Assembly: GCA_041499075.1 (NCBI GenBank)
Contig: JBGQJN010000001.1
Coordinates: forward strand, 10,388 to 74,387
Origin: Minisyncoccia bacterium
Lineage (GTDB): Bacteria > Patescibacteriota > Minisyncoccia > 2-02-FULL-40-12 > IGHO2-01-FULL-4-A
Direction of reading: 5' to 3'
Length of the DNA stretch: 64,000 nt
Positions 2,629 through 62,782 of this stretch are shown in pieces; the stretch's first letter is position 1, and each line of letters opens with the position of its first letter. The position numbers were made by a program, and so were the translations under genes. The notes under the pieces were generated by a model. That model was given only the letters and a program-made list of their open reading frames with translations. It did no database searches and had not been told where the DNA came from.

Positions 2629-3627
2629 TTATACCAAATTTTCGTCTATGGTTTCCAATACCTTTCGCTTAAGATTGTAGCCATTGCCATACTCAAGCAT
2701 GCCCAAGTAAGAATCGGCAACTTCTTTTTTAACACCACAAGAAATCTTTTTAAACATTCGTCTTCTAGTTGTAGTCCTCAAAACTCTGTGATCTGGAAAA
2801 TTGACCCAGCCGAGAAAATCTACACCGGAAGTTATTGTTCTAATTGAGATTTTGTCTTGATGTAATTTCAGATGAAGTTTTCTATCTAAGAACTCCCCTA
2901 TCCTAGATAGAGCCAACCGAAGCCAAACTTTATCTTTGGATAAAACAACAAAGTCGTCAGCATAACGGATATAATATTTGGCACCAAGTTCATGCTTAAT
3001 GAACTGGTCAAACTCATTCATATAAATATTTACAAAAAGCTGGGAGGTCAGATTGCCCAAGGGTAAACCCCTACCATAACCAGCCGAGAAGCTATCAATA
3101 ACTTGCGACAAAAGCAATAATACATCCTGATCGGAAACATATTGAGATAATATGTTTTTCAAAATGACGTGATTAATATTTTCAAAAAACTTTTTGATAT
3201 CACACTTGAGCGTCCAACAAGTTCGGGTGTTGTTACTACTGGCTTGGTAAGCAAAACTTCTGAAATGATTGATAGCTTTGTGCGTTCCCTTGTTTAATCT
3301 GCAGGAAAAAGAATCGGCCACAAAGACCCGATCAAAAAACGGATACAAAATTCTGTAGATAGCATGGTGAAGAAGACGATCTCGGACCGGCGCTTTGTGT
3401 ATATGCCTTGGTTTCGGATCAGAGATATTGAACGCTTGATATCCGCCGTGTTTATATGTATGATTGGCAAGATGCAATTGCAAACTTAATATATTATCCA
3501 TCAGGTTTAACTGAAAGTCCTGCACGTCACGCTTGTTTCGTTTACCTTTAACGAATTCTCGCCAAGCCTCTAGCAAATTATCAACACTAATTATATCCTC
3601 AAATTTATGAGCCAAAATAGTTTTCAT
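2629..3627 (-). CDS. Diversity-generating retroelement reverse transcriptase
   Basis: Contains LPLGNLTSQLFVNIY, where the DGR-specific SQ replaces QG in RT motif 4. Also has the YADDFVV catalytic motif and a DGR-RT-like N-terminus NLLEAWREFVKGKRNKRDV...PVRDRLLHHA. The start is placed at the internal MKTIL (3627); the 383-aa track ORF would overlap avd. Confidence 0.85.
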   Translation of the reverse strand: MKTILAHKFEDIISVDNLLEAWREFVKGKRNKRDVQDFQLNLMDNILSLQLHLANHTYKHGGYQAFNISDPKPRHIHKAPVRDRLLHHAIYRILYPFFDRVFVADSFSCRLNKGTHKAINHFRSFAYQASSNNTRTCWTLKCDIKKFFENINHVILKNILSQYVSDQDVLLLLSQVIDSFSAGYGRGLPLGNLTSQLFVNIYMNEFDQFIKHELGAKYYIRYADDFVVLSKDKVWLRLALSRIGEFLDRKLHLKLHQDKISIRTITSGVDFLGWVNFPDHRVLRTTTRRRMFKKISCGVKKEVADSYLGMLEYGNGYNLKRKVLETIDENLV

Positions 3628-3648
3628 TTCAATAATCCATCTTCTAAG

Positions 3649-3658
3649 CCCCCCCCCC
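3649..3658. repeat. C10/G10 homopolymeric tract in the divergent avd-RT intergenic region
   Basis: Ten consecutive C lie 9 nt upstream of the avd ATG and 21 nt upstream of the RT ATG (opposite strand). Confidence 0.9.
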
Positions 3659-3667
3659 AGGCCTTCA

Positions 3668-4009
3668 ATGTCCATTATCCAAAGATTTGTCGCGGCATAC
3701 AAGCTTTGGCAAGAGTACATCAGCCACTTTCCGAAAAAATCTCGATATACGCTTGGAGGCAAAATTGACTCTCTTTTCATAGATACCGCAGAACTGATGT
3801 TTACTGCAAGTTATCTCACAAAAGACAAGAAACTGCCATATATTCAAAAAGCGTTGGGCACTTTTGATTTATTAAAATTCTTTCTGCAAATAGCTTGGGA
3901 AATCGGATCAATGGATAACAAGAAATATGCTGCGTTATCTGAACCGCTTAGTGAAATAGGAAGAATGCTCGGAGCCTGGTACAAACAAACACAAACCCCG
4001 TCTAAATAG
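3668..4009 (+). CDS. avd: Avd-like accessory variability determinant (four-helix-bundle, 23S rRNA IVS-protein family)
   Basis: 113 aa with FPKKSRYTLGGKIDSLFIDTAELMF...LGTFDLLKFFLQIAWEIG, the pattern of the four-helix-bundle/Avd family. It lies between TR and RT on the opposite strand. Confidence 0.7.
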   Translation: MSIIQRFVAAYKLWQEYISHFPKKSRYTLGGKIDSLFIDTAELMFTASYLTKDKKLPYIQKALGTFDLLKFFLQIAWEIGSMDNKKYAALSEPLSEIGRMLGAWYKQTQTPSK

Positions 4010-4036
4010 GCGGGTTTTGTAAAAATAACATTAGTT

Positions 4037-4168
4037 TCGGACAGCAGCGAAGCGGCAGTTGTCATTCCACCTGTTGTCGTTCCAGTTCAGGTTCAGCTTG
4101 CGCTTCGAGCCGTTCCTGTTGAGGTAAGGCACGTTGCGGTTGTCGTTGCTATTCTGCCACACGGAGCC
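4037..4168 (-). repeat. DGR template repeat (TR)
   Basis: 132 bp, near-identical to 4516-4649 apart from 25 positions. Every one of those is A on the minus strand of TR and G or T in VR. The TR sense strand is rich in AAC codons. Confidence 0.85.
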
Positions 4169-4423
4169 GTGTACAAGATATCATCTTTACCACTGCCCCT
4201 TGAATACTCTCAGGGCTGTATCGTATTTGGGATCTATAATCCTCCAATACCTTGTACCAAGTATTGTTATTTTAAGAGAAACTAGCGAGGCACGCTGAGA
4301 GAAGCCGTAACCGCCCCCATTCTGTCCTGCATAGCTCTAGAATTCGGCCACCGGAAGCCTTAACCGCCGGCAGATTCGCCTAATATCCAGATATATTAGA
4401 ACATATATTTTTATAAAAATGAA

Positions 4424-4458
4424 GAACTCCCGCTCGCGGAAACCGCGAACGGGAGTTA
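4424..4458 (-). promoter_or_regulatory. GC-rich hairpin immediately downstream of VR / target-gene stop (possible DGR homing-associated hairpin or terminator)
   Basis: actcccgctcgcggaaaccgcgaacgggagt is a 13-bp stem, followed on the minus strand by a U-rich run. Confidence 0.5.
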
Positions 4459-4511
4459 GGAGACCAGGGGTCCAGGGATCAACGGACCCAGAACTCCAGG
4501 AATCAGGGAAC

Positions 4512-5120
4512 CTACTTGCGGACAGCAGCGAAGCGGCAGCCGCCACTCCACCCGCCGTCGCTCCAGCCCAGGAACAGCCCGCGCTCCGAGCCGCCCCCGA
4601 TGAGGCAAGGCACGCTGCGGAAGCCGCTGCTATCCTGCCACACGGAGCCAAGAGCGAAGATTGGGAACTCGCGCTGCTTTTCCGGGTAGGTGACACCGAA
4701 GGCCAGTAGCTCAAGGAGAATCGCCGGACGCATGCCCTTTGACTCGAGGTCTTTGAGCACGTCGTCAGTCGACATATTCCGCCCATAGTGAACGAGCTCG
4801 ATGACGACATCCTGCTGGCCGCTGCCTTGGATCGGGAAGTGGTCGGCGTTGATGTCCTCATTCGCCCAGTCGTACTTGCCGGCCACGATCATCTCCTTGA
4901 GGGACTGGCCGTAGTTGACGACGACCTTGTAGCAGTTCTCGGCCACTCCGACCGCCGCGTCGATCAGCTTCAGAACGAACTCGTCGGTCAGCCGCTTGAT
5001 TGTGTCTTCGGACAGGCCGAGGATCGCTTCCTCCGCCTGGCGCAGCTTGACCGCGCCGATGATCCGAGTGGTGATGGTTGATACGAACCCGAACGCCGAA
5101 CCGATCGCTGACTTTGCCAT
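4512..5120 (-). CDS. DGR target protein (202 aa; C-terminal variable region, likely C-type-lectin-fold ligand-binding domain)
   Basis: C-terminus ...WQDSSGFRSVPCLIGGGSERGLFLGWSDGGWSGGCRFAAVRK is encoded by VR. GC content (~60%+) is well above the surrounding ~45%. Confidence 0.7.
   Translation of the reverse strand: MAKSAIGSAFGFVSTITTRIIGAVKLRQAEEAILGLSEDTIKRLTDEFVLKLIDAAVGVAENCYKVVVNYGQSLKEMIVAGKYDWANEDINADHFPIQGSGQQDVVIELVHYGRNMSTDDVLKDLESKGMRPAILLELLAFGVTYPEKQREFPIFALGSVWQDSSGFRSVPCLIGGGSERGLFLGWSDGGWSGGCRFAAVRK
4516..4649 (-). repeat. DGR variable repeat (VR) at 3' end of target gene
   Basis: See the TR entry. VR covers the last ~44 codons of the 4512..5120 ORF and runs to its stop codon. 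Confidence 0.85.
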
Positions 5121-25520: not shown

Positions 25521-26348
25521 TTATGCCCTGTGTATTTCTAATAGATCGCTTAGAACACTGTCCAAGTACATTTTGATTTGTAGAATCTCCGACCGTCCCT
25601 CTCTGTGGCTGTGAGCCGAAAGTGATCCACGTTCATAAACAGCCCTGACTAAACGAGGCACACTTTCATCAACTATTTGAGCAGCCATTTTCGGAGCTTC
25701 CATGGCCGTATCGGGGATTTCTCTGATTTTGAGAATATAGTGTACTTTCTGTTTCATTGTTGGCTGCTTTTCCCCTTCTTCAAATTTAAAGCCAGGGATC
25801 GCCTCAACTTCGGCATCGGGAGCCAAGTGATCCAAAACCTCACGAAGAACCTCTCGCAACTCAGTAGCCGTACCTCGGTATGATGCTCGGTTTTCCTGCA
25901 GGTCAGCAAGTGCTTGTTTATACGATATCGCCGCTCCAGGAACAACCTGTTCAAGCATATTTAGTATAACTTCATCCTGCTGGGAAGTATTTTTTGTGGC
26001 TGTTCCTTGAGTCCCTCCGGAGAGTCGTTGACTATTTAAATATTCGCGAGATATTTCTGCCTCAGCAAGATTTGCTCCAATTTTTGCAAAAACTTTTTTG
26101 TATACTGTTACCGAGGTGCGGGCACTGGCCATTCTCATCAAATCTTGCATCTGCTTGTCCAGCACCTCCGTTGCAACCATGCCAACAACCAGTTCGGGCC
26201 GTAACTCTCGAAAATATCGTTGCACAAAATATCGGATTCGGTTCTGCAGATTAGCAGAACTGATTTGAATAGAATTGGCACGATTTACTCTGGAAAGAAT
26301 CAGTTTTGTTTCGCGCACAATGGAAAGAAAGGTGTCGCTTTCCGACAC
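25521..26348 (-). CDS. Hypothetical protein (275 aa), predicted all-helical; C-terminal R-x5-H motif (VYERGSLSAHSH) reminiscent of HEPN-type RNase/abortive-infection domains
   Basis: ORF in the island; motif-level resemblance only. Confidence 0.35.
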   Translation of the reverse strand: MSESDTFLSIVRETKLILSRVNRANSIQISSANLQNRIRYFVQRYFRELRPELVVGMVATEVLDKQMQDLMRMASARTSVTVYKKVFAKIGANLAEAEISREYLNSQRLSGGTQGTATKNTSQQDEVILNMLEQVVPGAAISYKQALADLQENRASYRGTATELREVLREVLDHLAPDAEVEAIPGFKFEEGEKQPTMKQKVHYILKIREIPDTAMEAPKMAAQIVDESVPRLVRAVYERGSLSAHSHREGRSEILQIKMYLDSVLSDLLEIHRA

Positions 26349-44102: not shown

Positions 44103-44172
44103 GAATTAACTTTACAAAATAGCCATGAAAAACACAAAACCCCGCTAAGGGGTTCGTGTTTTTTAATAATAT

Positions 44173-44550
44173 CTAGAATGCGCCACCGCTCAAGCTAGAT
44201 ACAACGTAGTTTGCGGTAGCAAGTATCAAACCAACAGCCACCACCACCACTATTCCTATGAAACCATGAAGTATCGTGCCTCTGGCTTCCTCCGCCTTTT
44301 TCGCGTCACCTCGGGCAAGCATGTATTTCAAACCACCATAAACTATGAAAATAACTCCGATCGTGACACCAACTACCATCAAATATGTAGCAGCCTGGTT
44401 GATGATGCCAACAATACCATTTAATGTTACTGCTCCCGTTGTAGAACCAGGATTAGGAATAGGCACCTTTGCTTGTGCTAATGCTAATAACGGTAAGGCA
44501 AACCATGCCAACGGACTTGCCATCTTAATCATTTTTTTAATTTTATTCAT
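44173..44550 (-). CDS. VirB2/TrbC-like pilin (125 aa: signal peptide plus two hydrophobic helices separated by a charged loop)
   Basis: LNGIVGIINQAATYLMVVGVTIGVIFIVYGGLKYMLARGDAKKAEEARGTILHGFIGIVVVVAVGLILA; this architecture is typical of T4SS pilins. Confidence 0.55.
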   Translation of the reverse strand: MNKIKKMIKMASPLAWFALPLLALAQAKVPIPNPGSTTGAVTLNGIVGIINQAATYLMVVGVTIGVIFIVYGGLKYMLARGDAKKAEEARGTILHGFIGIVVVVAVGLILATANYVVSSLSGGAF

Positions 44551-44677
44551 ACGACACCCCCCTTCAGACTAGAATCTAGCGCTAGTTTTTAGTTACTAGT
44601 GCTTATCGCCGGCTGAACTAAAAACTAAACCTAGAACCTAGAAATCTTAATATTAAATTCTTGTTTCTATAGACAAA

Positions 44678-45700
44678 TTAACAAACTAGCGGAATAATGG
44701 AAACACTTGAACCTACCGCGTAAGCAACAGTAGCCATTATAACATACACGCCTATGATTACCAGTAAACCTATCAACACATGGCCAAAATTCTTTGTAGC
44801 GGCGGCAAATGCCGTAGGATTGCCTCTGGCATGCATGAAACGCAAACCGGCAATGACAATGAAAATAACCATTATGCCGTCGGCGGCGGTAAGCAGATAG
44901 CAGGCAAGCTTGGTGATTATCTTAAAAACATCCTGAATGGTCAGGTCAACCCCCGGCAAACCGCTGGTACCCGTAGTAGTCCCCGCTCCCGTCCCCGCTC
45001 CCGTACCCGTACCCGTTCCCGTACCTGTCCCAGTTCCAGTACCTGTCCCAGTTCCAGTACCTGTGCCTGTACCAGTGCCACCACCGGCAGGATTGGTAAC
45101 ACAAGTTGTGCCTGTCCAACTACAAGCTGGATTAAGGTTACATCTATTACCCGTACAATCGTTCGGCACTGGATAGTTAGCACAGCTTGTAATAGTTGAA
45201 CAATTAGGATTGATGGTTGTAGCCCGGGTCTGGATGTTAAATTGCGGTGAGGACCAGGTTTGACCTGGATTGAGACTGGCCAGAGTATCTAAAGCAGCTT
45301 TGGAAGTCCCCTGGCTTGATGCCGAACAATAGAAGAAACCAACGTAACGATTCTGCTGTTGATCAACACCCGAGCTAAAATTATAAGTTATATCTTGACC
45401 GCTGCCAGGAGACAGATACTCATAGTTAATGGCCGATCCGGCAATATAGTGCCTGACGGCATTAAAGAGTGAACCGGAATTGCAGGTAGGAGGTGAGCCA
45501 TTCGATTGTTGAAATACAGAAAAACTTAAATTAACAGTTTGAGCCGGGTCAACACCGGTCGCTCCAGTGGCAAGATCATCGCTTTCGTTGACACAAATAC
45601 CGTTATTACAACTTTGAGCGGTGTTGGTAGCAGAAACATTGTTTCCAATTAAAAACGTTGCAATGATTATTAGAAGCAATATTTTGTAGAAATTTTTCAT
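44678..45700 (-). CDS. Secreted Cys-rich protein with (Gly-Thr)n linker and C-terminal VirB2/TrbC-like two-helix module
   Basis: Signal peptide; many Cys; GTGTGTGTGTGTGTGTGTGTGTGTGAGTGAGTTTGT linker; C-terminus IMVIFIVIAGLRFMHARGNPTAFAAATKNFGHVLIGLLVIIGVYVI. Confidence 0.55.
   Translation of the reverse strand: MKNFYKILLLIIIATFLIGNNVSATNTAQSCNNGICVNESDDLATGATGVDPAQTVNLSFSVFQQSNGSPPTCNSGSLFNAVRHYIAGSAINYEYLSPGSGQDITYNFSSGVDQQQNRYVGFFYCSASSQGTSKAALDTLASLNPGQTWSSPQFNIQTRATTINPNCSTITSCANYPVPNDCTGNRCNLNPACSWTGTTCVTNPAGGGTGTGTGTGTGTGTGTGTGTGTGTGTGAGTGAGTTTGTSGLPGVDLTIQDVFKIITKLACYLLTAADGIMVIFIVIAGLRFMHARGNPTAFAAATKNFGHVLIGLLVIIGVYVIMATVAYAVGSSVSIIPLVC
44950..45075 (-). repeat. Imperfect hexanucleotide (GGNACN)n coding repeat encoding Gly-Thr linker, including an 18-nt perfect tandem duplication
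   Basis: Plus strand ccccgctcccgtccccgctcccgtacccgtacccgttcccgtacctgtcccagttccagtacctgtcccagttccagtacctgtgcc. Confidence 0.8.
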
Positions 45701-45704
45701 TGAA

Positions 45705-46835
45705 TTACGGGCCTTTTAAGCTCAGTATACTTTGGATTAAGCTGACAAATCCTTTGCCAATCAATACAATTGCCAGACCGATGACGGCATAGGTCAAAGC
45801 TTTTTTGCCCAACTCATAACGTTTAGGGCTACCGCCGGAAGTTAGCAATAAAATACCGGCATAAATTATTACAATCACCGCAAGCGGTATTGAAAGATTA
45901 AAAATCCAGGTACCAATGATGTTGACTAGATCTTGAAAGGTACTGATACCGATGGGGTTTTGTAAAGTAAAGGTTTGGTTGCCACCGCCAGTTGTGCCAC
46001 CGCCAGTTGTGCCACCGCCACCACCACCACCAGCAGCAGCACAGCCTGTACAATTATCGGTGCCCGCTCCCGGCACCACAACACAAACATTACTTTGACA
46101 TTCCTTGTGGCTTTGCGTCGACACCTCTTTTCCGCATAAAGTGCTGTCGCTTAGTTTCGCACATTGTGTCCTATCCGTGCAACCAGTCGTATTGACACAG
46201 GTACTGTCGTTTTTGGAATCACAAATATAAACAGTTTTCCCAACGGCATCGGGTCCGGTACACGCGAAGATGTTGTATGTGCCCGATGTTAGTTTTATAG
46301 AATACTGGCCGCTCGAGGTAAGAATTGTACAATTGTTTGTAAAAAAGCCGCCGGTTTTGCAAACCACAACATAGGCTTTTACTGGCATGCTATCCCCGGC
46401 TGTAAAACCTCCTATATTGGAATCTATAAGATCAGATGGTGTAACCGTAACAGAACTGCCATAAGGCGTCGGCTTATTCTGCGTCATATTTATAGTATTG
46501 GTTGCATACCTATTTCCTAGACCGTTTTTTGCTTGGGGCGGTGCATCGCTTAAATCAAGTGAATAGGCTTGGTAAAAATCATAGTAAACATAAAACTTAT
46601 TAGAACAAATGGTACCGTCAACGCTACAATAGCCATCGCATGTTCCACCGTTAACAAAGCCGCCCATAGTCACTTGGCTTGTGATCGTAAGCGGTCGGTT
46701 AAAAGACAAATTGCCCGAAGGAAGATTTACTTGAATATTTGCCGTACAATTAGCACTTGCAATTTTTACCGGAATCAAAACAAACAAAAAACCCGCGATT
46801 AATGTAACGATTAAAATTTTATAAGTATTCCGCAT
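45705..46835 (-). CDS. Secreted Cys-rich protein with Gly-rich linker and C-terminal VirB2/TrbC-like two-helix module
   Basis: Signal peptide; AAAGGGGGGGTTGGGTTGGG linker; C-terminus LAVIVIIYAGILLLTSGGSPKRYELGKKALTYAVIGLAIVLIG. Confidence 0.55.
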   Translation of the reverse strand: MRNTYKILIVTLIAGFLFVLIPVKIASANCTANIQVNLPSGNLSFNRPLTITSQVTMGGFVNGGTCDGYCSVDGTICSNKFYVYYDFYQAYSLDLSDAPPQAKNGLGNRYATNTINMTQNKPTPYGSSVTVTPSDLIDSNIGGFTAGDSMPVKAYVVVCKTGGFFTNNCTILTSSGQYSIKLTSGTYNIFACTGPDAVGKTVYICDSKNDSTCVNTTGCTDRTQCAKLSDSTLCGKEVSTQSHKECQSNVCVVVPGAGTDNCTGCAAAGGGGGGGTTGGGTTGGGNQTFTLQNPIGISTFQDLVNIIGTWIFNLSIPLAVIVIIYAGILLLTSGGSPKRYELGKKALTYAVIGLAIVLIGKGFVSLIQSILSLKGP

Positions 46836-46884
46836 ATTTAATTTGATTGGATTTCTTTTATCAAGGGCTCTAAAATGTCAAACG

Positions 46885-47227
46885 TTAGTTGGTTAGCAGG
46901 TCTTGCGCAAGGCGATCAATCTTTTCCGGGATCAGTTGAATTATTAAATCAATATCGGCTGTAAACCGCGGCCTACCCCAAATCGCAAGGGCAAAACTTC
47001 CGGTAATAACGTAGGAAATTCTTAAATTATCAAGGATTGCGGCTATTATTGTCAGTAAGTTTTCTTGCTCCATAATTAAAATATGCCGGGTTAAGCTTGC
47101 GGGCCAACTTAAAGAAATTGCTGACTATTTTTACTTTTTGTTCGGCCGACATTTTTTGAAAAACCTCGTCCTGAATATCTTGAGCGGTTTTTATTTTGGC
47201 CGTTTGAGCTGATGACATATTGGGCAT
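46885..47227 (-). pseudogene. Possible remnant of a small two-gene module: 65-aa ORF plus truncated minimal nucleotidyltransferase (MNT)-like ORF (GSFALAIWGRPRFTADIDL)
   Basis: Two overlapping short ORFs; the second has the GS...DxD nucleotidyltransferase motif but only 62 aa. Confidence 0.3.
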
Positions 47228-47274
47228 TGTACTTGCTATTAATTCCCTTATGATATTTTACTACCTAAAACGAA

Positions 47275-47958
47275 TTACGGCAATTTAATCTGTGGAGGAA
47301 GAGGCGGCAATGGGTTGCTAGGTCCGATATTTTTCTTGGTAACCGAACGTCTGACCAGCCAAATGACAATCACGATGGCAATTCCGCCCAACAAGTAAAG
47401 TATCGCCCCCAGCCAATTACTGCCGCTCTTGGCCGCCAGTTGCGGTGTAACGGAAGTACTCGGCGGCGGTTTCAAATGGCAATCAGTCGGACAGTTGTCG
47501 GAATTCTCACCGACATCCGAGTTACAAATATTATCATCATTGCAAAATGAGCTCGCTGAAACGCTCAAAGTCAAAAGTAATTGATTGTTGCTGTCATAAA
47601 AATTGACATTGTCACCATCAGCAAAATATGGTCCCTTTACCGAAAATCTGCCCTTAACAATACTCGTATCAAATTGAAAAGTAGCCAGTATTTTATTTTG
47701 GAAATTAACTATTTCTCCGTGATAAGGGTTGGCTGTTTTTAAAACTGGCACTAAATAGGGTTCGGCGACAATGTCGTATTGAAACTTAACATCCCGATCG
47801 GCGACTAGCTGATTATTAGAAAAGTAAAGATGAAAAAGATATGTAAAACCACTATCACTTGCAGTTTTGGTATCAGCGCTAGTTTTGTACGCGTAGAACC
47901 CGGCTACTGAAACTAGCCCTATGAATAAAAATACAAATATTTTTTTAATCTTAAGCAT
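47275..47958 (-). CDS. Secreted, C-terminally membrane-anchored hypothetical protein (227 aa, Cys-rich stalk, Pro-rich tail)
   Basis: Signal peptide, C-terminal TM segment LGAILYLLGGIAIVIVIWLV. Confidence 0.45.
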   Translation of the reverse strand: MLKIKKIFVFLFIGLVSVAGFYAYKTSADTKTASDSGFTYLFHLYFSNNQLVADRDVKFQYDIVAEPYLVPVLKTANPYHGEIVNFQNKILATFQFDTSIVKGRFSVKGPYFADGDNVNFYDSNNQLLLTLSVSASSFCNDDNICNSDVGENSDNCPTDCHLKPPPSTSVTPQLAAKSGSNWLGAILYLLGGIAIVIVIWLVRRSVTKKNIGPSNPLPPLPPQIKLP

Positions 47959-47963
47959 ATTAA

Positions 47964-50900
47964 TTAAAACCCGGGATTAGCAGTACAATAAATAATCTTG
48001 GTTGCCCCGGCCTTGGTTTGATTATAACCTAGCTTAATATCGCTGTCTCCATTGCAAATAGTATGCGCGTTATCATCGTAAAGACACTCCCACTTGCGGA
48101 CATTATTAGTGCCATCACAACTTTTTTCAGGAGGCAGACAATTAGCACTGTCGGCACAGGCACCGGCAGCAGTCCATCCTCCATTATAACCGGCATAAAT
48201 ATTTCTGACTTGAGAACCGCAGGTTCCAGCGGCTATTACATTGATAAAGTTCGCGCCGATGCAGATACTCGCATCGGCATTTATGGGATTAGTTAGCCAA
48301 GCGCGCGTAACCATACATCTATTAAGAATGCTGTCCCAACGGCCTCCGGCAGCAGTACAACTTAGCGAGCTATTTTGAATTGGACAGCCTCGACTATTCT
48401 GGTTGGCGGTGTCAACGTTAAGCTGCATTAAACCGAATGAAGACGGTGGATTGTCAAATGATACCGCACCGACATTACAGGAAGATTCGGCCAATATTAT
48501 CGCTTTCAAAATATTAGCCGTCGCCGCTCCGTTGTTGGTACCATACTTATTAGCAGAAGCGGCATATTGGGCGCTACAGTTGCCGTTACTACATGCTGTT
48601 GATTGGCCCTGACAAAGATTTAAACTGCTAAACATGCAAATTGCTCCCGTTGTTGTTCCCGTTCCTGTCCCTGTGCCTGTTCCAGTTCCTGTCCCAGTAG
48701 TTGTCTGGCTGGGATTAGTACAAATAACCGTGTTCCAGTTTTGCCCAAATAAGCTATTGCCCGCAATAGATTTGAGTACGGAATTGGTGATCATCCATGC
48801 CGCAAAAATTATTATCAGCCCCCAAGTAGTATTTTTAAAAAACGTTTTGCCGGTCCCGACCCAGCCAGGATTGAATCCGCCGAGTAATATCATTGTTCCG
48901 GCGATCAGATACATCAGCACCGCGATTGCCGGCACAAGCGTGAAAAGAACAAAATTAATCACCCGGCTCAATAGAGCCAGGATATCGCATGGTTGGCATG
49001 GCTGAGCTTCAGCGGCAGTATAGCCAGGAATTGGAACAGGATTGCCGCTAGAATCAATGGCTGAATAGTGGCCGCAAGGTACCAATGATGTTTTAGTTCC
49101 CGCCGCGTTGGTAGTCGCACCCGTACCGGTCCCCGTCCCTGTACCTGTACCTGTACCTGTACCCGTGCCTGTCCCCGTACCCGTGGTAGCTGCCTGAGCA
49201 ATATTAGGTCCAAAGGCAATGTCCGCTGCCGCTTTTTGCGCAGGATTACTAGAATCGGTAGCTTCCACGCCAACGCCATTGGCAGGCACAGCGGCTTGGG
49301 CAATATTAATAATATTTCGAGGGAAATTTACGGCTATGGTCCCGGTAATTAACCCATCCGAACTTAAATTGAAACCAGTAGGTAAATTTCCGCGTATTAT
49401 CTTCCAGGTATAGGGTGCAGTTCCATTTTGAACTGTCAGTTGAGCCTGATAACTAGTTGCCTGCGCAACGTTAATGAGCTTAGACGGCGATTTGGGTGTT
49501 GCTAATGATATTGTTCTGCTTGTGTCAGGGATAAATAATGAGTTGCCGGGTATAGACAGGTCGGGCGAAGAAATCTTAAACCTAATGGTCGTCGATTTAT
49601 CAGCATTAGCGCCGACAAGCAACCATTCTACCCAAGAACCATTGAGACTGGCCTCATCGAATCCGGCCCAGCTATTCTCAAGTGACCAGTTGCCACCGCC
49701 ATCTGTGGTCAGCGGGGCAGCAATGCCTAAATCTCCGACCGGCGTACAGCCCAGAGAGCTGCCATTTTGTTCGGCGCATATCTGAAGTGTGGCGTTGGCA
49801 GGTGCACCCGTTAGATTAAGCCGCCAAGAATCTATATTCCAAAATCCGGGATTTCGAAATGGCTTGGTGATATTAGTAATCGTCAACTTAGGACCACAGG
49901 CTGAACCGCCGGTAAGGCCGCAAATGTAGTCACCCGCAGGCGTCAGTGTCGCGCTGGAATCATAGAGTCCGAACTGTCCGCCAGCATCAAGTAGATTCCA
50001 GACGAAAGCGTATTTGACTCCCGAGTCCACGGCCACTTGTGTCACGATTGCCACTTTACTTTCGATATCCTGCCTGCTTCCTTGATCAAAACCGTACTCA
50101 CCGATTACCAGATTGCCGGAATTCTTACCGGCAGAGGAGATAACACTTCTTATCAAACTGAGGTCGTTCCTTAATTGAGTGCCATCGTCGCCATTGTAAA
50201 GTGCGTTAATTGATTCGTAAGATGAATAGGAGTAATAGTCGGCGTTAACTGCCGGTATGACATCGTAGAGAACGCTTAGTAAACCCCGGTCTTTCAAATT
50301 ATGAACAATATTGAATTCCACGGCACTGAAAACATTGGAGGCACCAGATGATTTTATGCCTGCCGTGCGCGCATTGATCCATTTCTCGAAACCAGCCATA
50401 GAGTTCAGGTAGCTCGGGCAACCGGCAGCAGTAGCACCAAATGCCGCACCGCAATAGATGTCGTTATCACCCTCCCAGTTTGAAATGATAAATGTTTTGT
50501 TGGGATAATTGGTGGCCAGATAACTTGCAAAATTAGCATATTCGTTTTGAATACGCTGGGTATTAGCTGCTGTGAAAAAGCTAGGATTGAGATAATTCTT
50601 AGTAACACAATCAGCAAAAGAAACACCGTCATAAGCAGTAATCATAATCACATTAAAGTTTGGGTCGCTCAATAGTGTATTGAAATCCGCCCTCCGCGCT
50701 AAACTTGTAAGGGAAAAATTGCTAATGCAACTCCCGCCACCGTAATCCTTGTCTGATTGCGGACCCATTACTATTCTTACGTTTTTAGGTCCTAAATCCT
50801 GCAATAGCATATCACCAGCCTGCAGCATGCCACTAGGCTGATTGCTTATTCTGCCGGCCCAAAAATATGCCCCGACATTATTGGCAGTAAGGGCTAAGGA

Positions 50901-50978
50901 GTGTGTTATGCCAACAGAAAAGACTCCAACAACAATTAGGAGGGTAACCGCTAAGATTTTAGATGCATTATTATTCAA
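47964..50978 (-). CDS. Giant multidomain surface protein (1004 aa): GH5-like (clan GH-A) glycoside hydrolase, Ig-like/cadherin-like domain, (Thr-Gly)n linker, VirB2/TrbC-like two-helix module, second linker, C-terminal lytic transglycosylase (SLT) domain
   Basis: NWEGDND and GEYG catalytic-region motifs; GNLPTGFNLSSDGLITGT; two TGTGTG... linkers; FVLFTLVPAIAVLMYLIAGTMILLGG...WGLIIIFAAWMI; ILKAIILAESSCNVGAVSFDNPPSSFGLMQLN (SLT E-S...GLMQ motif). Confidence 0.6.
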   Translation of the reverse strand: MNNNASKILAVTLLIVVGVFSVGITHSLALTANNVGAYFWAGRISNQPSGMLQAGDMLLQDLGPKNVRIVMGPQSDKDYGGGSCISNFSLTSLARRADFNTLLSDPNFNVIMITAYDGVSFADCVTKNYLNPSFFTAANTQRIQNEYANFASYLATNYPNKTFIISNWEGDNDIYCGAAFGATAAGCPSYLNSMAGFEKWINARTAGIKSSGASNVFSAVEFNIVHNLKDRGLLSVLYDVIPAVNADYYSYSSYESINALYNGDDGTQLRNDLSLIRSVISSAGKNSGNLVIGEYGFDQGSRQDIESKVAIVTQVAVDSGVKYAFVWNLLDAGGQFGLYDSSATLTPAGDYICGLTGGSACGPKLTITNITKPFRNPGFWNIDSWRLNLTGAPANATLQICAEQNGSSLGCTPVGDLGIAAPLTTDGGGNWSLENSWAGFDEASLNGSWVEWLLVGANADKSTTIRFKISSPDLSIPGNSLFIPDTSRTISLATPKSPSKLINVAQATSYQAQLTVQNGTAPYTWKIIRGNLPTGFNLSSDGLITGTIAVNFPRNIINIAQAAVPANGVGVEATDSSNPAQKAAADIAFGPNIAQAATTGTGTGTGTGTGTGTGTGTGTGATTNAAGTKTSLVPCGHYSAIDSSGNPVPIPGYTAAEAQPCQPCDILALLSRVINFVLFTLVPAIAVLMYLIAGTMILLGGFNPGWVGTGKTFFKNTTWGLIIIFAAWMITNSVLKSIAGNSLFGQNWNTVICTNPSQTTTGTGTGTGTGTGTGTTTGAICMFSSLNLCQGQSTACSNGNCSAQYAASANKYGTNNGAATANILKAIILAESSCNVGAVSFDNPPSSFGLMQLNVDTANQNSRGCPIQNSSLSCTAAGGRWDSILNRCMVTRAWLTNPINADASICIGANFINVIAAGTCGSQVRNIYAGYNGGWTAAGACADSANCLPPEKSCDGTNNVRKWECLYDDNAHTICNGDSDIKLGYNQTKAGATKIIYCTANPGF

Positions 50979-52309
50979 GGGCCGTTTTGACTGCGTTGCA
51001 TTAAAACATTAACTTTATTTTGAGCGGAATCGAGAGCATCGCGGGCACTGGCGCGCCCAAAATTAACGTCATCTATCATGTTGGCAAATATGGTTTCGAT
51101 GGCAGAACTGTTAACTTGGTACCAGCATTTAGCCGAAAGGGCTTGCTCGGCAAAGACACCGATATCCGGCTGGCCCTTTTCTTGCTCAATCAGATCACGC
51201 CTGGCTGACGGGCGGCCGGAAGCCGTAAGATACAAGCCCGCACCTTTGGCCGAACTAAGGTAAACTAAAAATTTCCAGGCGGCAACCGCGTTTTTGGATT
51301 GTTTAGAAACTGTTGGCGCCCAATAATTTGCATAATTGACGGCAACTTGTGAACCGGCTATCTGCGGCATTGGCGCAATTCCGAAATTAAATCTTGCCGA
51401 TTTGGAACGGATTGTCGTAATCTCATGGGAATAATTGAACATCATTGCCGCATTGCCTCCGGCAAAGGCGTCAATTGAATATTGCTGTTGGTCGTTCCAG
51501 GTGTAAACCTGCTTGGTTGAGTTGGCAAAATCAGTGTAATACTGCAAAGCCGTTTCACCGACATTCTGGCCGCCTACTGAAAGCGCGAAAGCAGCGCTCC
51601 TGTGGCTATCGTCAGTCATTTTAACACCGCTTTGCATCATCAGAAGTCCCAGGATATCAGTCGAACGATTAATATTACTTGCTGTGCCAATAGCCGCTCC
51701 GGCTCTGACAATATTGCCGTGAGAATCAAGAACGGTGAGTTTTTTGACGTCATCATTAAATTCATCCCACGTCTTGGGCGGCTGAGCTATACCGGCAGTG
51801 TTAAAAAGATCTTTATTGTAGTAAAGCGCCATGCTGTCCATGTAAATCGGCAGGGCGTAGATTTGACTGTTTTGAGTCAAATCATTAAGCGCGCCGTCAA
51901 CAAACTGATCTTGGAATTGCTTAATCGTAAAGATGGACACTTTCGCGCCGCTAAGAACTTGCTGAGGCAAAGGCTGAATCTCGGCGATATGCTTGGGCAA
52001 CCAAGTGTTGTGCATCAGCCAGATATCCGGACCAGTACCGGCGGCAAAAGAATTTATCAGCTGACTTTCATAATCGGCGAAATTGAACTGCCTATAAGCA
52101 ATTCTGATACTGGGATTCGTCTTCTGGAAGTCAGTAATTGCGCTATTATAAAAACTAACATCATCATAAACACCCCAGAATTGTAAAGTTACGGACTGCG
52201 GCGCCGGCGGCGCGCCAAGACCTCCGAAAAAAAAGACCAAAATCAAAAGCAGGATCAGCACCACAAGGCCAGCGAGAGAACCGATTATGATTAGTTTAGT
52301 TTGGGACAT
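50975..52309 (-). CDS. ABC transporter extracellular solute-binding protein (carbohydrate family 1)
   Basis: N-terminal TM anchor, then VTLQFWGVYDD...; 444 aa. Confidence 0.7.
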   Translation of the reverse strand: MSQTKLIIIGSLAGLVVLILLLILVFFFGGLGAPPAPQSVTLQFWGVYDDVSFYNSAITDFQKTNPSIRIAYRQFNFADYESQLINSFAAGTGPDIWLMHNTWLPKHIAEIQPLPQQVLSGAKVSIFTIKQFQDQFVDGALNDLTQNSQIYALPIYMDSMALYYNKDLFNTAGIAQPPKTWDEFNDDVKKLTVLDSHGNIVRAGAAIGTASNINRSTDILGLLMMQSGVKMTDDSHRSAAFALSVGGQNVGETALQYYTDFANSTKQVYTWNDQQQYSIDAFAGGNAAMMFNYSHEITTIRSKSARFNFGIAPMPQIAGSQVAVNYANYWAPTVSKQSKNAVAAWKFLVYLSSAKGAGLYLTASGRPSARRDLIEQEKGQPDIGVFAEQALSAKCWYQVNSSAIETIFANMIDDVNFGRASARDALDSAQNKVNVLMQRSQNGP

Positions 52310-58726: not shown

Positions 58727-59413
58727 CTACTGATGCGTTATGAAGGCAAAATCCATTTTTTCTACAAAATAATTGCGAAAGTTTTTAGGCAAGGAGTTTA
58801 GTACGTCAGGTACTGTCCACGGCCGTTTTGCTATATGGTCACGAATTACTTTGGGATCAGAATACAGCTCCCCCAAATCTACCAGAATGATGTTGCCGTC
58901 GGCGCTTGTAGCAAAGTTATCCGTAATAAGAAAATTCCTATCAATGAGCGAATGTCCGATCAGGGTTTTATTAAATTCAACAAAAGCGTCAATAATTTTT
59001 TTAGCTTCTTCTAACGTCGCGGACTTCAAGCATCTACGCAATGGAGTGACTTTATCCTGTTCGTAATCAAGTTCATTGAGAACCCTAGGGTTACCGAGTA
59101 CCCGACCCTCTAGCGTGGTATGCAGGATTTTTTGTATTGATCCGGCAGCTTCTTGCCGGCATCTTTTATAGTATTTATGAAATTTCCAAAAAGGATGCCT
59201 GACGTAAGGAAAACTGTCATGTAACATCATGAGATAAGCAGTAAAACGAGTGTTGAATTTCTTTAACACTCTAGCGTTACCTATGTCATAAGTTGTATAC
59301 TGCCACCCCCTGCCAATTACTTTCATATCTTTATTGTGCCAACATCTGTTTAATTGTTTGATAGACGGGTTTTTGACTGCCGTCATAACGAAGAATGCCG
59401 AAGAAATTTTCAT
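58727..59413 (-). CDS. Hypothetical protein with protein-kinase-like features (Gly-rich loop IGRGWQYTTYDIGNARVLKKF; DLG motif)
   Basis: Motif-level resemblance only; the true start may be the internal MKVIGRGW (~59329). Confidence 0.35.
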   Translation of the reverse strand: MKISSAFFVMTAVKNPSIKQLNRCWHNKDMKVIGRGWQYTTYDIGNARVLKKFNTRFTAYLMMLHDSFPYVRHPFWKFHKYYKRCRQEAAGSIQKILHTTLEGRVLGNPRVLNELDYEQDKVTPLRRCLKSATLEEAKKIIDAFVEFNKTLIGHSLIDRNFLITDNFATSADGNIILVDLGELYSDPKVIRDHIAKRPWTVPDVLNSLPKNFRNYFVEKMDFAFITHQ

Positions 59414-60467
59414 TTGTACTGTTGCTGGTACCTAAGTCTTTGTAACTGTAGAAGAACAACGGGCCAGCCCAGGAATAGCTGCGAACCAAGTTGATACCGT
59501 CCTGGTAAATAGTAGACTGCAGGCCCTCTGAAACATGATCGGGGTTTTTGCTCAAGTTACTATTGGTAAGCGAGGCTTCCGCGCCCGGTCCGTCTGTCGG
59601 AGCACCGAATTCTGTCATCCAGATTTGCTTACTTGCATCACTGTTTGTGATCATTATACTGCGTAAACTCGGATTAGTCACCGATATCTGCGACCAAGCA
59701 TTTGAGTTAGCCGGTCTTGAGGGAAATGAGTATGGGTGGACCCCAATAGCGTCAAAATAATTTTTGGCGTTATTTTCATATAATTGGGAAATAAAATCTA
59801 CCGGCAGGATATCGCCCCTGGCAGTATTAGCCGGACCGACGCCACCTGTTACCACAAAGGCAGTAGGGTCCTCGCTTTTTATCGCGTTATGGACAGCTTT
59901 AAGAAGATCGGTGTAGTCGGCGGCATCAGGGGAGGGCTCCCAAAATGTTTTCAAATTAGGTTCGTTCCATATTTCCCAATTATGTATGCCTTGTGAAGCA
60001 TAGCGCTGAACGGCGGCGGCGGCAAATGTAGCGAAGGCGGAGTTATCCGCCGGCCGACATTGGGCTGAAAAACAGCCATCTTGACGTGCCCAAGGCGGCG
60101 TATAGTCAAGTATCGGGAGTAACTTAATGTGGCGAATATTGGCAGCCGTCACAAGACGATCAATGGCATTCCAATTAAAACTATCGGCATCATTTGGCTG
60201 AACACTACTCCAATCAATGTCAAAGCGCAGCCAACCGATATTTAGCGACACCAGGTCATCTAACTCCGCGTTTACATCACCCTTACCCCGTGAAAGAATT
60301 GTACCGGTTGATACGCCGAATCTATATGCAACTGGATTTTTTACAACAGTGGTGCCAGGAATTGAAATAATAAAACTACCCGACAAAAAATACCAAATTA
60401 AAAACATCCCGCCTAAAAAAATAACCAGCGATCCTAAAAATAACTTGAAGTGTCCCTTTTTTCTCAT
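59331..60467 (-). CDS. Secreted GH5-like (clan GH-A) glycoside hydrolase, 378 aa
   Basis: N-terminal TM/signal, IWNEPN acid/base motif and MTEFG nucleophile motif. Confidence 0.65.
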   Translation of the reverse strand: MRKKGHFKLFLGSLVIFLGGMFLIWYFLSGSFIISIPGTTVVKNPVAYRFGVSTGTILSRGKGDVNAELDDLVSLNIGWLRFDIDWSSVQPNDADSFNWNAIDRLVTAANIRHIKLLPILDYTPPWARQDGCFSAQCRPADNSAFATFAAAAVQRYASQGIHNWEIWNEPNLKTFWEPSPDAADYTDLLKAVHNAIKSEDPTAFVVTGGVGPANTARGDILPVDFISQLYENNAKNYFDAIGVHPYSFPSRPANSNAWSQISVTNPSLRSIMITNSDASKQIWMTEFGAPTDGPGAEASLTNSNLSKNPDHVSEGLQSTIYQDGINLVRSYSWAGPLFFYSYKDLGTSNSTNENFFGILRYDGSQKPVYQTIKQMLAQ

Positions 60468-60483
60468 AAATTAATCAGTCCGT

Positions 60484-60768
60484 CTATTCCCTGACGAGAT
60501 TCCAAACAAAGAAGGAGACAAAAGACATCAAAAAACATATGGCACCGAATGTGTCCTCGCGGGGAAATGGCAAGAGGTGCGTCAACGGTAGTTCAAGTGT
60601 TTCCGGATGAGTGGAGGCATTAACTGCAATATAGATCCAACCCAGCAATCCAAAAACAAACAAGGTTAATGAAAGTGAACGAATTATTTTTATATTATCT
60701 ATCCTCATATCTTTATTGTACCAGCATCTGCTTAATTGTCTGATAGGCAGGTTTTTGACTGCCGTCAT
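60484..60768 (-). pseudogene. Remnant of the kinase-like gene produced by tandem duplication (shares MTAVKN..QL.RCW.NKDM N-terminus with 58727..59413, then unrelated hydrophobic tail)
   Basis: 59330-59390 and 60710-60770 are about 85% identical. Confidence 0.4.
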
Positions 60769-62782
60769 ATCTTAATACGCCAAAGAAGTTCTCATTGGTG
60801 CTTGAACTGGTACCCAAGTCTTTGTAACTGTAGAAGAATATCGGGCCAGCCCAGGAATAGGTGCGAACCAGGTTAATGGCGTCGCCTATGATTAAGCTTT
60901 GAAGTTCTTCCGTGACATGGTCAGGGCTTGCATCTAGGTTATAATTGGTTGCCGTGGCCAATGCTCCCGGTCCGCCTGTCGGAGCGCCGAATTCTGTCAT
61001 CCAGATTTGCTTGGCTGAATCGCCGTTTGTGATCATTATACTGCGTAAACTCATCGATGTAAGCGACATCTGTGACCAGGCATTCCATGATGCCGAATAT
61101 GATGGCTTAACGGGGTATGAATATGGATGAAACCCAACCTGGTCAAAATATGGCCTAGCCCCGTTCTGATACATCTGGTTGAGATAATTTACCGGTGCAA
61201 TATTGCCGCCGCCTGTGGCAGAAGGTGCCATGCCACCGGATATGACAACTGCCGAAGAGTCTTTATTTTTTATGGCCGGGTAGACTGCTTTAAGTAAGTT
61301 TGTATACTCAAGTGAATCAGCTCCCGAGCTCCAGAATGATGTTGAATTCGGTTCGTTCCATATCTCCCAGTTATGTATGCCCTGCGGAGCATAGCGCTGA
61401 ACGGCAGCGGCAGCAAATGCGGCAAAAGCGGAGTCATCTGCCGGCGGACACCATAAAAAAGAGGAGCAGCTGACAGACCTGGCCCAAGCCGGTGTATCGT
61501 CTAATACGGGAAGTAACTTTATATTGTGGGTGTTAGCCGCTGCGACCAAACTATCTATCACACTCCAATGAAAAGTCGATGCACCGCTAGATTGGATGCT
61601 GTTCCAACTAATATCAAAACGGAGCCACGTAATTCCCAGAGAAGCCATATCACTAAGCCGAGCATTCAATTCGGTACTGGATAGGGAAAGAAATGTTTCA
61701 CCTACCGACATGCCAAAATTATTAGAAATAATAGTTGTCGGGGTTGGAGTCAGCGTTGGTGTTGTCGTAGGCGTTGGAGCCGGAGATGCAGAGACAATAG
61801 TCGAGGGAGTTGGTGTCGGAGTTTTTGTTGGTATGGGTGTTGGGATTACAGTCGGTGTTGAGATAGAGGTTGAACTTGGGGTAGGGATTGGAGTCAAACT
61901 AGGAGTTGGGGCAGGTGTGGAAGTATAGCTTGGGGTTGTCGAAGGCATTGGAGCCGAAGATCCCGATACGGCAGGCGAGGAAGTTGGAGTAGGAGTTGGT
62001 GTTGAATTCGGAACTGGGGTGAGGGTTGGTGTCAGCATTAGGGTAGCTGAAGGTCCTGGGCTTGGGGTTGTCGAAGGAGTTGGGGTCAATTTAGCAGTTG
62101 ATATCGGGGCGGCGTTTACTATTAATCGCGTAGTGCTTAGTTTGTAGCCAACATTACCCTTGTTATCATGAGTTTCAAGACTGTACCACCAAGTACCTTT
62201 AGCCGGAGTATCCTGTAAAACAGAGGCCCAAGAATCCAGATTCGCCGGAACATTAGTAGTCGCCACAGCCGACCAAATACAATCTGATTTCTTACTTGTA
62301 TTACATTTTGATACCGAATATGGAGCATGATTGAGACCCACATAACTTAAATGCGAACCGCCGGAATCGGTGACTGTAAATGATGCTGTCATGGAATCGC
62401 CGGCATTTATACTGCGTGGCTGTATATCAAACAAATTAACCACGGGGACGGTCCCGTCATCGGCCGGTAAAGGAATCGGTGTAGGGCTGGTAGTACCGGC
62501 ATTCTTAGGGATAGAAGCGAGCTGGCTGTCTGCCCCGATATCGATTATAGTCTCATTTATGTTTCCCAGTTTAAAAATTGTGGTTACCGGCGGGAAAAAG
62601 AAAATAACCAAAAACGCTTCGACAACAAAGAGTATCGACAGACCAATAATAAGTTTGAATTTTGATGTTTTGTAGATAATGTTTTTATAATACCGGATTT
62701 TTTTCCTTTTGATATTATGCCAAAAAAATGTATACTTTATTCTTGGCATCACATCATACCATAAATGACGTATTCTCCACAA
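60713..62782 (-). CDS. Secreted GH5-like glycoside hydrolase paralog with N-terminal Ig/FN3-like domain and Pro/Thr-rich linker (689 aa)
   Basis: C-terminal 330 aa is paralogous to 59331..60467 (IWNEPN, MTEFG); the PT-rich segment is TPTPTPTSSPAVSGSSAPMPSTTPSYTSTPAPTPSLTPIPTPSS... Confidence 0.65.
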   Translation of the reverse strand: MWRIRHLWYDVMPRIKYTFFWHNIKRKKIRYYKNIIYKTSKFKLIIGLSILFVVEAFLVIFFFPPVTTIFKLGNINETIIDIGADSQLASIPKNAGTTSPTPIPLPADDGTVPVVNLFDIQPRSINAGDSMTASFTVTDSGGSHLSYVGLNHAPYSVSKCNTSKKSDCIWSAVATTNVPANLDSWASVLQDTPAKGTWWYSLETHDNKGNVGYKLSTTRLIVNAAPISTAKLTPTPSTTPSPGPSATLMLTPTLTPVPNSTPTPTPTSSPAVSGSSAPMPSTTPSYTSTPAPTPSLTPIPTPSSTSISTPTVIPTPIPTKTPTPTPSTIVSASPAPTPTTTPTLTPTPTTIISNNFGMSVGETFLSLSSTELNARLSDMASLGITWLRFDISWNSIQSSGASTFHWSVIDSLVAAANTHNIKLLPVLDDTPAWARSVSCSSFLWCPPADDSAFAAFAAAAVQRYAPQGIHNWEIWNEPNSTSFWSSGADSLEYTNLLKAVYPAIKNKDSSAVVISGGMAPSATGGGNIAPVNYLNQMYQNGARPYFDQVGFHPYSYPVKPSYSASWNAWSQMSLTSMSLRSIMITNGDSAKQIWMTEFGAPTGGPGALATATNYNLDASPDHVTEELQSLIIGDAINLVRTYSWAGPIFFYSYKDLGTSSSTNENFFGVLRYDGSQKPAYQTIKQMLVQ

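Follow-up and report, generated by a model that had tools for sequence, protein, structure and literature searches.

VirB2-like pilins of the families PF04956 and PF18895 have been recorded in 1,948 Patescibacteria assemblies and lie near virB4 in 1,135 (PMC12102498). The known arrays number 441, with 2-11 pilin genes each and a mean paralogue identity of 25% (Quinonero-Coronel et al. 2025, PMC12102498), and are reported to be most abundant in Microgenomatia and Saccharimonadia (PMC12102498). In Ca. Southlakia epibionticum, the only species tested in this respect, an essential pilin array is found within the type IV secretion system (T4SS) cluster SEML1_0006-0019 (Wang et al. 2023, PMC10633639), and the role of the T4SS and of pilin arrays in Patescibacteria is treated as an open question (PMC10633639, PMC11665869, PMC12857230). 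Here we analyse the interval 44173-50978 of a 64-kb window (the whole stretch of contig JBGQJN010000001.1 under study), whose four pilin genes we name P125, P340, P376, and P1004. Judged from its sequence, the interval very probably carries a chromosomal array of VirB2-like (PF18895) pilins with domain fusions, in a member of the Paceibacteria related to Ca. Yanofskybacteria. Among named organisms, Ca. Yanofskybacteria and Zambryskibacteria, class Paceibacteria, are its nearest relatives.

Patescibacterial VirB2-like pilin arrays are already known (published in 2023 and 2025), and the present one is not a new category. What is little described is the fusion of pilins to enzyme- and adhesin-like domains, a four-class gene order unlinked to virB4, the partnership with a solute-binding protein (SBP) and with a surface protein that we call P227, and the shuffling of ectodomains between pilins. 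We found no discussion of enzyme- or adhesin-like-fused pilins, or of a gyrA-SBP-linked array, in the searched literature, which is not proof of their absence.

The shared pilin module

An earlier note on this DNA had described a cluster of four paralogous surface proteins built on one pilin-like module. The four open reading frames (ORFs) are present, all on the minus strand: P125 at 44173-44550 (125 aa, the class D plain pilin), P340 at 44678-45700 (340 aa, a class C pilin fusion), P376 at 45705-46835 (376 aa, a class B pilin fusion), and P1004 at 47964-50978 (1004 aa, a class A pilin fusion). The cluster thus stands, and the gene content given for it was incomplete, with a fifth conserved gene, P227 (47275-47958), lying unmentioned inside the interval. 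Each of the four proteins has an N-terminal hydrophobic signal sequence and exactly one hydrophobic helix pair by hydropathy, and an AxA-type site can be read at the end of the signal sequence in all four. The hydrophobic helices fall at residues ~46-74 and 93-111 of P125, 265-283 and 308-326 of P340, 314-332 and 349-367 of P376, and 681-699 and 721-739 of P1004. Cys residues number 0 in P125, 12 in P340, 16 in P376, and 28 in P1004.

The helix pair belongs to a shared module of ~90 aa, present once per protein, that forms a helix-turn-helix membrane hairpin. In the AlphaFold2 (AF2) models the hairpins are long and helical with turns of 2-4 residues, the helices spanning 300-332 and 337-373 in P376 and 663-701 and 704-739 in P1004. 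Pairwise blastp aligns P125 with P340 at 37% identity over 92 aa (E = 4e-14), P125 with P376 at E = 2e-7, and P376 with P1004 at E = 4e-5. With pairwise identities of 14-37%, the four modules, all within 6.8 kb, thus make up a tandem array of divergent paralogues. The recurrence of the P125 module at the C-terminus of P340 and P376 and in the middle of P1004, a point of the earlier note, is borne out by blastp, by PF18895, and, for P376 and P1004, by AF2.

PF18895 (T4SS_pilin) is the top Pfam family for all four proteins. Its gathering cut-off of 26.6 bits is passed by P125 (43.7 bits) and P376 (43.9 bits), and the former score, together with the signal peptide and two helices, agrees with the T4SS-pilin layout claimed for P125. 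The short stand-alone size of ~100-140 aa is found in P125 only, P340, P376, and P1004 all bearing additional domains. To widen the comparison, we aligned 28 modules from the window locus and from related loci and proteins (alignment A2). Every one of these matches PF18895 at E <= 0.01, orthologues of all four classes included, and 13 of the 28 also match TrbC/VirB2 (PF04956) at the same threshold, with a best E of 1.6e-7. When the A2 profile was run against 177,635 distinct PDB sequences at E <= 10, only Agrobacterium VirB2 (8exh and 8cue) was returned, a match that is weak but specific. Among NCBIfam models, P125 gives sub-threshold matches to pilin-like conjugal transfer families of Mycoplasma integrative and conjugative elements (ICEs) and of pLS20, including 27.3 bits, below the cut-off, for the Mbov_0395 pilin-like family. 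Because of these PF18895, TrbC, PDB-profile, NCBIfam, and AF2 results, we read the module as a predicted VirB2-like pilin hairpin of the Patescibacteria family and not as a bona fide member of PF04956. Nor do the modules resolve into an unrelated two-helix membrane family, since PF18895 scores highest, 13 of the A2 modules match PF04956, and the profile finds VirB2 alone in the PDB.

Gly/Thr-rich linkers stand ahead of the module in P340, P376, and P1004, as had been noted, with G+T fractions of 0.87, 0.68, and 0.59, and P1004 has an additional Gly/Thr linker behind its module. The linker DNA is an imperfect hexanucleotide repeat. We note a repeat-length polymorphism in the first Gly/Thr linker of the P1004 gene (~49102-49162): the otherwise near-identical assembly GCA_041486835.1 (contig JBGPMC010000002.1, locus L016) is without ~60 bp of (GGTACN)n and encodes a protein of 983 instead of 1004 aa, and the JGI contig Ga0534154_0000355 (3300052991, locus L017) is 100% identical to the window. 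The length difference could be strain variation or assembly collapse.

Fused domains and conservation across related loci

The class A protein, P1004, is composed in order of a signal peptide, a TIM barrel of clan GH-A, a beta-sandwich/Ig region, a Gly/Thr linker, the pilin hairpin, a second Gly/Thr linker, and an SLT domain, an architecture kept in full in the homologues P0001-P0004 (48-51% identity, 96-100% coverage). Its AF2 model was built with 34 sequences and has a mean pLDDT of 71. The clan GH-A (beta/alpha)8 glycoside-hydrolase-like domain occupies aa 30-360 (49899-50891, minus strand) in AF2 and Foldseek analyses; the barrel has a pLDDT of ~95, and Foldseek matches it to GH2 glucuronidases, GH5, GH158, GH39 (PslG), and GH1, with E down to 3.8e-11. 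Two Glu residues, E169 (NWEGDND, just past strand 4) and E294 (IGEYG, where strand 7 ends), are invariant in 34/34 sequences, and we take their sites to be the acid/base and nucleophile positions of clan GH-A (the 4/7 superfamily). With its barrel and its Glu residues at strands 4 and 7, the modelled domain fits clan GH-A. Assignment to a GH family by sequence gave nothing, with no Pfam match to the barrel in any of the 34 homologues and no PDB sequence match; whole P1004 searched against PDB sequences returned Gly-Ser/Gly-Thr linker artefacts only. The GH-A domain is also found C-terminal to a pilin module in P0017, and in unrelated secreted proteins with PG_binding_1, SH3_3, PKD, fn3, and T9SS sorting domains.

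Behind the barrel, beta-sandwich and Ig-like (He_PIG-type) domains span aa 364-590 (49209-49889, minus strand), with AF2 strands at 364-469 and 508-589; PF05345 He_PIG was found in 3 homologues, with a faint match in locus L001. The class A pilin module follows at aa 656-745 (48744-49013, minus strand), identified by the AF2 hairpin and by PF18895. A conserved PCxxCD motif lies ahead of it, and class A orthologues match PF18895 at up to E = 7.7e-8. The C-terminal part, aa 791-1004 (47967-48608, minus strand), comprises an SLT lytic transglycosylase (VirB1-like) domain and a Cys-rich tail. PF01464 matches aa 818-861 at 24.1 bits (cut-off 21.3), and the domain has the SLT motifs AE831S, GLMQ, and YAGYNGG; a search of PDB sequences with the SLT tail by itself gave no match. 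By its HMM match, its Glu-Ser pair, and its GLMQ motif, this C-terminal domain is a predicted SLT/VirB1-like enzyme. Taken together, the AF2, Foldseek, and Pfam results on the GH-A barrel, the SLT domain, and the Ig-like sandwiches bear out the suggestion that the modules carry variable adhesin or enzyme domains.

The pairing of pilin and SLT extends well beyond this gene. P1004 residues 655-1004 searched against 1.84 billion cluster representatives retrieved 2498 representatives at E <= 1e-3, 327 at <= 1e-10, and 62 at <= 1e-30. Architecture counts rest on the best 150 of the 2498: both parts are present in 90 of the 150, and in all 90 the pilin precedes the SLT domain. These 90 have a median length of 421 aa and a median leader of 42 aa, only 6 have >100 aa N-terminal to the module, and 65 keep the E[ST]...G[LIVM][MLF]Q motif. 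Word-indexed searching with the module profile returned mostly short pilins. Given the ~2,500 representatives, the pilin-SLT pattern concerns a large protein family rather than a single gene.

In class B, P376 consists of a signal peptide, an Ig/FnIII-like beta-sandwich (aa 31-183), Cys-rich small beta units (189-255), a disordered Gly/Thr linker (266-288), and the pilin module at aa 289-376 (nt 45708-45971), with a mean pLDDT of 79.6 in its AF2 model. An alignment of the class B family (A4) places an F-x-L-x-N-P-I-G motif (P376 residues 289-296) exactly at the junction of linker and module, with F289 and P294 invariant and the remaining positions conserved; cleavage for ectodomain release could take place there, or the motif could belong to an assembly interface. 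The class C protein P340 has a signal peptide, a Cys-rich ectodomain (aa 25-204), a (GT)n linker (205-249), and the module at aa 250-340 (nt 44681-44953). P125 consists of a signal peptide with an ALAQA cleavage-type site and the pilin module at aa 38-125, and is a likely candidate for the major subunit.

Comparison across genomes was one of the checks put forward in the earlier note. In 11 independent Paceibacteria loci the gene order is fixed as gyrA, methyltransferase, SBP, class A, (P227-like), class B, class C, class D, and each window pilin has its own orthologue class, with module identities of 44-74% in the closer syntenic loci. Class A relatives measure 331-1004 aa and usually comprise a leader, the pilin, and a C-terminal domain (SLT in many); the N-terminal GH-A/Ig block is restricted to the window and its closest relatives (L001, L002, P0001-P0008). 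Class B relatives, of about 320-540 aa, nearly always have an N-terminal ectodomain, which is lost in L002 (119 aa). Class C proteins are of 123-140 aa in most loci and carry an ectodomain in the window, L001, L013, and L023, and class D proteins, at 106-150 aa, are short throughout. We read the array as one of four old, non-redundant pilin classes in fixed order.

The outer domains behave differently from the modules. In the class B family, pairwise identity averages 76% for the module versus 33.5% for the ectodomain, and invariant module positions beyond the hydrophobic core include W310, N313, P317, G327, G353, G360, and G362; this is more conservation than one would expect of a plain lipid anchor. 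Ectodomains are present or absent among orthologous pilins, and the P340 ectodomain (47-68% identity) is joined in five other proteins to class B modules that are 68-76% identical to that of P376. Since the P340 ectodomain occurs on class B modules, ectodomains have been exchanged between pilin classes. The same outer domain on different pilin classes across genomes directly supports the idea of a modular anchor or display scaffold.

Two partner genes accompany the pilins. P227 (47275-47958, minus strand), a conserved bitopic surface protein of 227 aa, starts with a signal peptide and continues with a beta-rich ectodomain that contains a CxxDxxC...GENxxxCPxDC knot, a C-terminal transmembrane (TM) helix, and a Pro-rich tail. 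Its homologues, at 36-53% identity, are the next gene downstream of pilin-SLT in L006, L007, L009, L011, L012, and L014; P227 has no Pfam, NCBIfam, or PDB match, the PDB search yielding noise. Upstream of P1004, an orphan membrane-anchored SBP of 444 aa (50975-52309, minus strand; SBP_bac_1/SBP_bac_8, Pfam E = 4.6e-33) is encoded by a gene whose stop overlaps the P1004 start by 4 nt. An SBP gene stands immediately upstream of the class A gene in 9 tabulated syntenic loci and in L024 and L025, and no ABC permease or ATPase gene adjoins the SBP gene. At the other end of the array, a terminator-like hairpin at 44137-44155 (minus strand, 18 nt past the P125 gene, a consensus match only) probably marks the operon end, in a region where the count of terminator-like sites is not above shuffled expectation. 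The count from a promoter scan of the region was likewise not above shuffled expectation, and therefore no promoter is claimed.

Some further genes and fragments lie in and around the array. Between the P227 and P376 genes, at 46885-47227, lie two small ORFs, one of which (62 aa) corresponds to a truncated piece of an AbiEii-like nucleotidyltransferase, scores 19.5 bits (under the cut-off), and probably represents a toxin-antitoxin remnant inserted into the array. In L001, HicAB is found between gyrA and the methyltransferase, upstream of the array, and GIY-YIG fragments occur inside and just past it.

Assembly, anchoring, and rival explanations

The locus lies in the core chromosome, with gyrA, a methyltransferase, and the SBP gene upstream and a DOT1-like methyltransferase, rpsB, and tsf downstream. 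VirB4 and VirD4 are absent from the window, as the earlier note had observed: the only FtsK/VirD4-type ATPase is FtsK with alpha and gamma domains, and the only ORFs of at least 500 aa are FtsK, RpoB, RpoC, GyrA, P1004, and a GH5/39-like protein. A search for virB4 linkage through the long-contig homologues P0151, P0129, P0054, P0152, P0064, and P0099 returned the same gyrA-SBP array each time, a consequence of building the profile on this lineage. VirB4 is listed as present in GCA_001794755.1 and in most Yanofskybacteria (Table S1, PMC12102498). GCA_001794755.1 is the genome of locus L005, which bears the same array.

Our best explanation combines the pilin identity of the array with display by a T4SS, and we consider this combination moderately probable; filament assembly that depends on a T4SS, taken as a separate proposition, falls slightly short of an even chance. 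All four proteins would be exported by Sec and lose their signal peptides, as read from their sequences, and the hairpin would sit in the membrane with both ends outside and its short loop inside, as in VirB2. Both hairpin ends outside is the VirB2 topology, and it would make the N- and C-terminal cargo of P1004 both extracellular. Class D (P125) would supply the bulk subunit and classes A-C low-copy subunits, with the hairpin as docking and assembly module from which flexible Gly-Thr tethers hold out the outer domains, be it at the cell surface or along a filament. There, the GH-A and SLT domains of class A may cut glycan or peptidoglycan of the cell's own wall or of a host wall, and the class B and C ectodomains may be fast-evolving, swappable Ig-like/Cys-rich binding domains that set attachment specificity. 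Assembly would be carried out by a VirB4-type T4SS encoded elsewhere in the genome. The conservation of the four hairpin classes suggests specific protein-protein contacts, be it polymerisation or docking to a machine. A more ambitious version, in which one plain and three specialised pilins build a T4SS-type filament or surface lattice whose enzymes and swappable Ig-like adhesins grip and open a host envelope and the orphan SBP captures the released material, is quite unlikely in its entirety.

Several observations weigh against pilins assembled by a T4SS. Whole-protein PF18895 scores are below the cut-off for P340 (16.6 bits) and P1004 (19.8 bits), and the isolated P1004 module reaches 25.8 bits, still below 26.6. 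In the HMM check for VirB2/TrbC that had been proposed, PF18895 came out best and that part stood; the PF04956 part did not, all four window proteins scoring below its gathering cut-off of 27.9 bits (best 19.2 bits, P376), which indicates remote homology, not membership. The matches to VirB2 structures are weak (E = 0.044 and 0.12), and the helical SLT domain (799-931 in AF2) is modelled at modest confidence, with pLDDT 50-78. T4SS core genes were not found anywhere in the 64-kb window, nor in the 10 kb adjoining it on each side, and the 10-kb flanks of the array are likewise free of them at all 11 related loci. The large flanks of the class A hairpin (~630 aa and ~260 aa) are hard to fit into a VirB2-type helical filament. 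Finally, a 2025 review regards the pilus of such monoderm systems as an open question, none having been seen in any Patescibacterium (PMC12857230).

In the main rival, the hairpin derives from a pilin and now does no more than anchor surface enzymes and adhesins that need neither a T4SS nor a filament, P125 being a small membrane protein of other function. None of the 11 loci has virB4 next to the array, the class A hairpin is flanked by large domains at either end, the outer domains are exchangeable as for a generic anchor, and the co-transcribed orphan SBP is itself a membrane-anchored surface protein. Against this, the module is far better conserved than the outer domains (76% versus 33.5%), with invariant positions outside the hydrophobic core that would be unusual for a passive anchor; four distinct classes, the unfused one included, recur in fixed order in every genome; and S. 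epibionticum has, within its T4SS cluster, a related pilin array that it cannot do without (PMC10633639). On this balance, we hold the anchor-only account to be somewhat unlikely. Another rival holds that the T4SS-pilin similarity itself is a compositional artefact of hydrophobic hairpins, the module being merely a generic two-TM segment, and it is true that short hydrophobic modules draw weak Pfam matches (DUF4153, DHHC, Saf_2TM, E = 0.01-0.8) and that TrbC stays below its cut-off. This is very improbable, however, in view of P125 and P376 exceeding the PF18895 cut-off by 17 bits, the pairwise blastp E values down to 4e-14, the module profile that finds VirB2 alone in the PDB, and the orthologous conservation of the classes, at 50-76% identity, across genomes.

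A last candidate sees class A as phage-derived, a lysis or bacteriocin module of holin-endolysin-like type, the remaining genes being unrelated small membrane proteins. A two-helix hairpin next to a lysozyme-like domain does superficially resemble a holin/endolysin pair or a signal-anchor endolysin, and a reverse-transcriptase element is present elsewhere in the window. The genes, however, sit in the core chromosome between gyrA and rpsB/tsf with synteny in 11 genomes, no phage genes are nearby and PADLOC gave no match beyond noise, the hairpin matches PF18895/VirB2 and not a holin family, and the class A protein has a cleavable signal peptide and large additional domains. The context largely refutes this proposal, to which we give hardly any credence. 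A reading of the locus as a defence system was dropped after PADLOC gave a single noise-level match.

The locus offers testable handles, namely pilins with recognisable enzymatic cargo, four classes in a conserved arrangement, and a constrained assembly module set beside variable, exchangeable outer domains. If the fusions do ride on a filament, a conjugative-type pilus would have been put to a new use, one that could plausibly help an episymbiont to attach and feed; should they be anchors only, the pilin fold would have been recycled as a general surface-display scaffold in very small genomes.

Neighbouring elements and known systems

Elsewhere in the window, a complete diversity-generating retroelement lies at 2629-5120 on the minus strand. 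It comprises a reverse transcriptase (RVT_1, 2629-3780), a template repeat (4032-4168), and a variable repeat (4513-4649) that forms the C-terminus of a 202-aa target ORF (4512-5120), for which no Pfam match was found. The two repeats differ at 28 of 137 nt, and 27 of the 28 mismatches fall at template A positions. At 59331-62782, with 10 kb beyond also viewed (L019), are two secreted GH5/GH39-like proteins of 378 and 689 aa, adjoining a large glycosyltransferase/polysaccharide-synthesis cluster that runs past the window end; blastp at E <= 1e-3 finds no similarity between them and the GH-A domain of P1004. An ORF at 25521-26348 has a predicted pPIWI-associated nuclease domain (pP_pnuc_1, E = 5e-14), and no Argonaute/PIWI gene was noticed beside it.

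Among better-characterised appendages, the minor pilins of type IV pili and type II secretion systems and the tip adhesins of sortase-assembled pili offer a functional analogy. Such pilus systems combine a plain major subunit with a small number of others that have the assembly module in common with it and bear adhesin or enzyme domains besides. Their modules and machineries are unrelated to those considered here, and no homology is implied. Closer in sequence are the pilin-like proteins of Mycoplasma ICEs and Bacillus pLS20 (NF045849, NF045848, NF045889, NF045890), to which the P125 hairpin gives weak matches (E = 2e-6 to 0.03); three of these families, at 300-377 aa with a hairpin near the N-terminus followed by an extension, have a similar layout. 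Their extensions, in contrast, are unrelated, and the scores lie far below the curated cut-offs, so that membership in these families is unsupported.

A membrane-tethered SLT lytic transglycosylase has been proposed to open the wall for the T4SS (PMC12102498). P1004 resembles VirB1 and the monoderm peptidoglycan hydrolases PrgK, TraG of pIP501, TcpG, and CD419 in tethering an SLT domain to the membrane and in the motifs that it retains. It differs from them in that its tether is a pilin hairpin instead of a single TM helix, in that it is without CHAP/NlpC and has an additional GH-A domain, and in that its gene does not adjoin virB4. The VirB2/TrbC/TraA pilins of diderms (Agrobacterium T-pilin, 8exh, 8cue) share with the window proteins a leader followed by helix-loop-helix and a weak, specific profile match; in weak alignments, the ARG loop motif of classes C and D places its Arg on that of VirB2 'MFGRAS'. 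That VirB2 Arg binds lipid in the T-pilus. Unlike the window fusions, the classical pilins are small and unfused, are encoded in a T4SS operon, are in some cases cyclised or acetylated, and are assembled across two membranes.

The nearest counterparts are the published Patescibacteria arrays, which likewise consist of tandem paralogues with PF18895/PF04956 modules, sometimes with a non-pilin gene between them, in a monoderm CPR host, and whose ~25% paralogue identity compares with 14-37% here. In contrast to those arrays, three of the four genes in the window carry large fused outer domains (GH-A, SLT, Ig-like), and the array is unlinked to virB4 and held in a fixed gyrA-methyltransferase-SBP context, in Paceibacteria.

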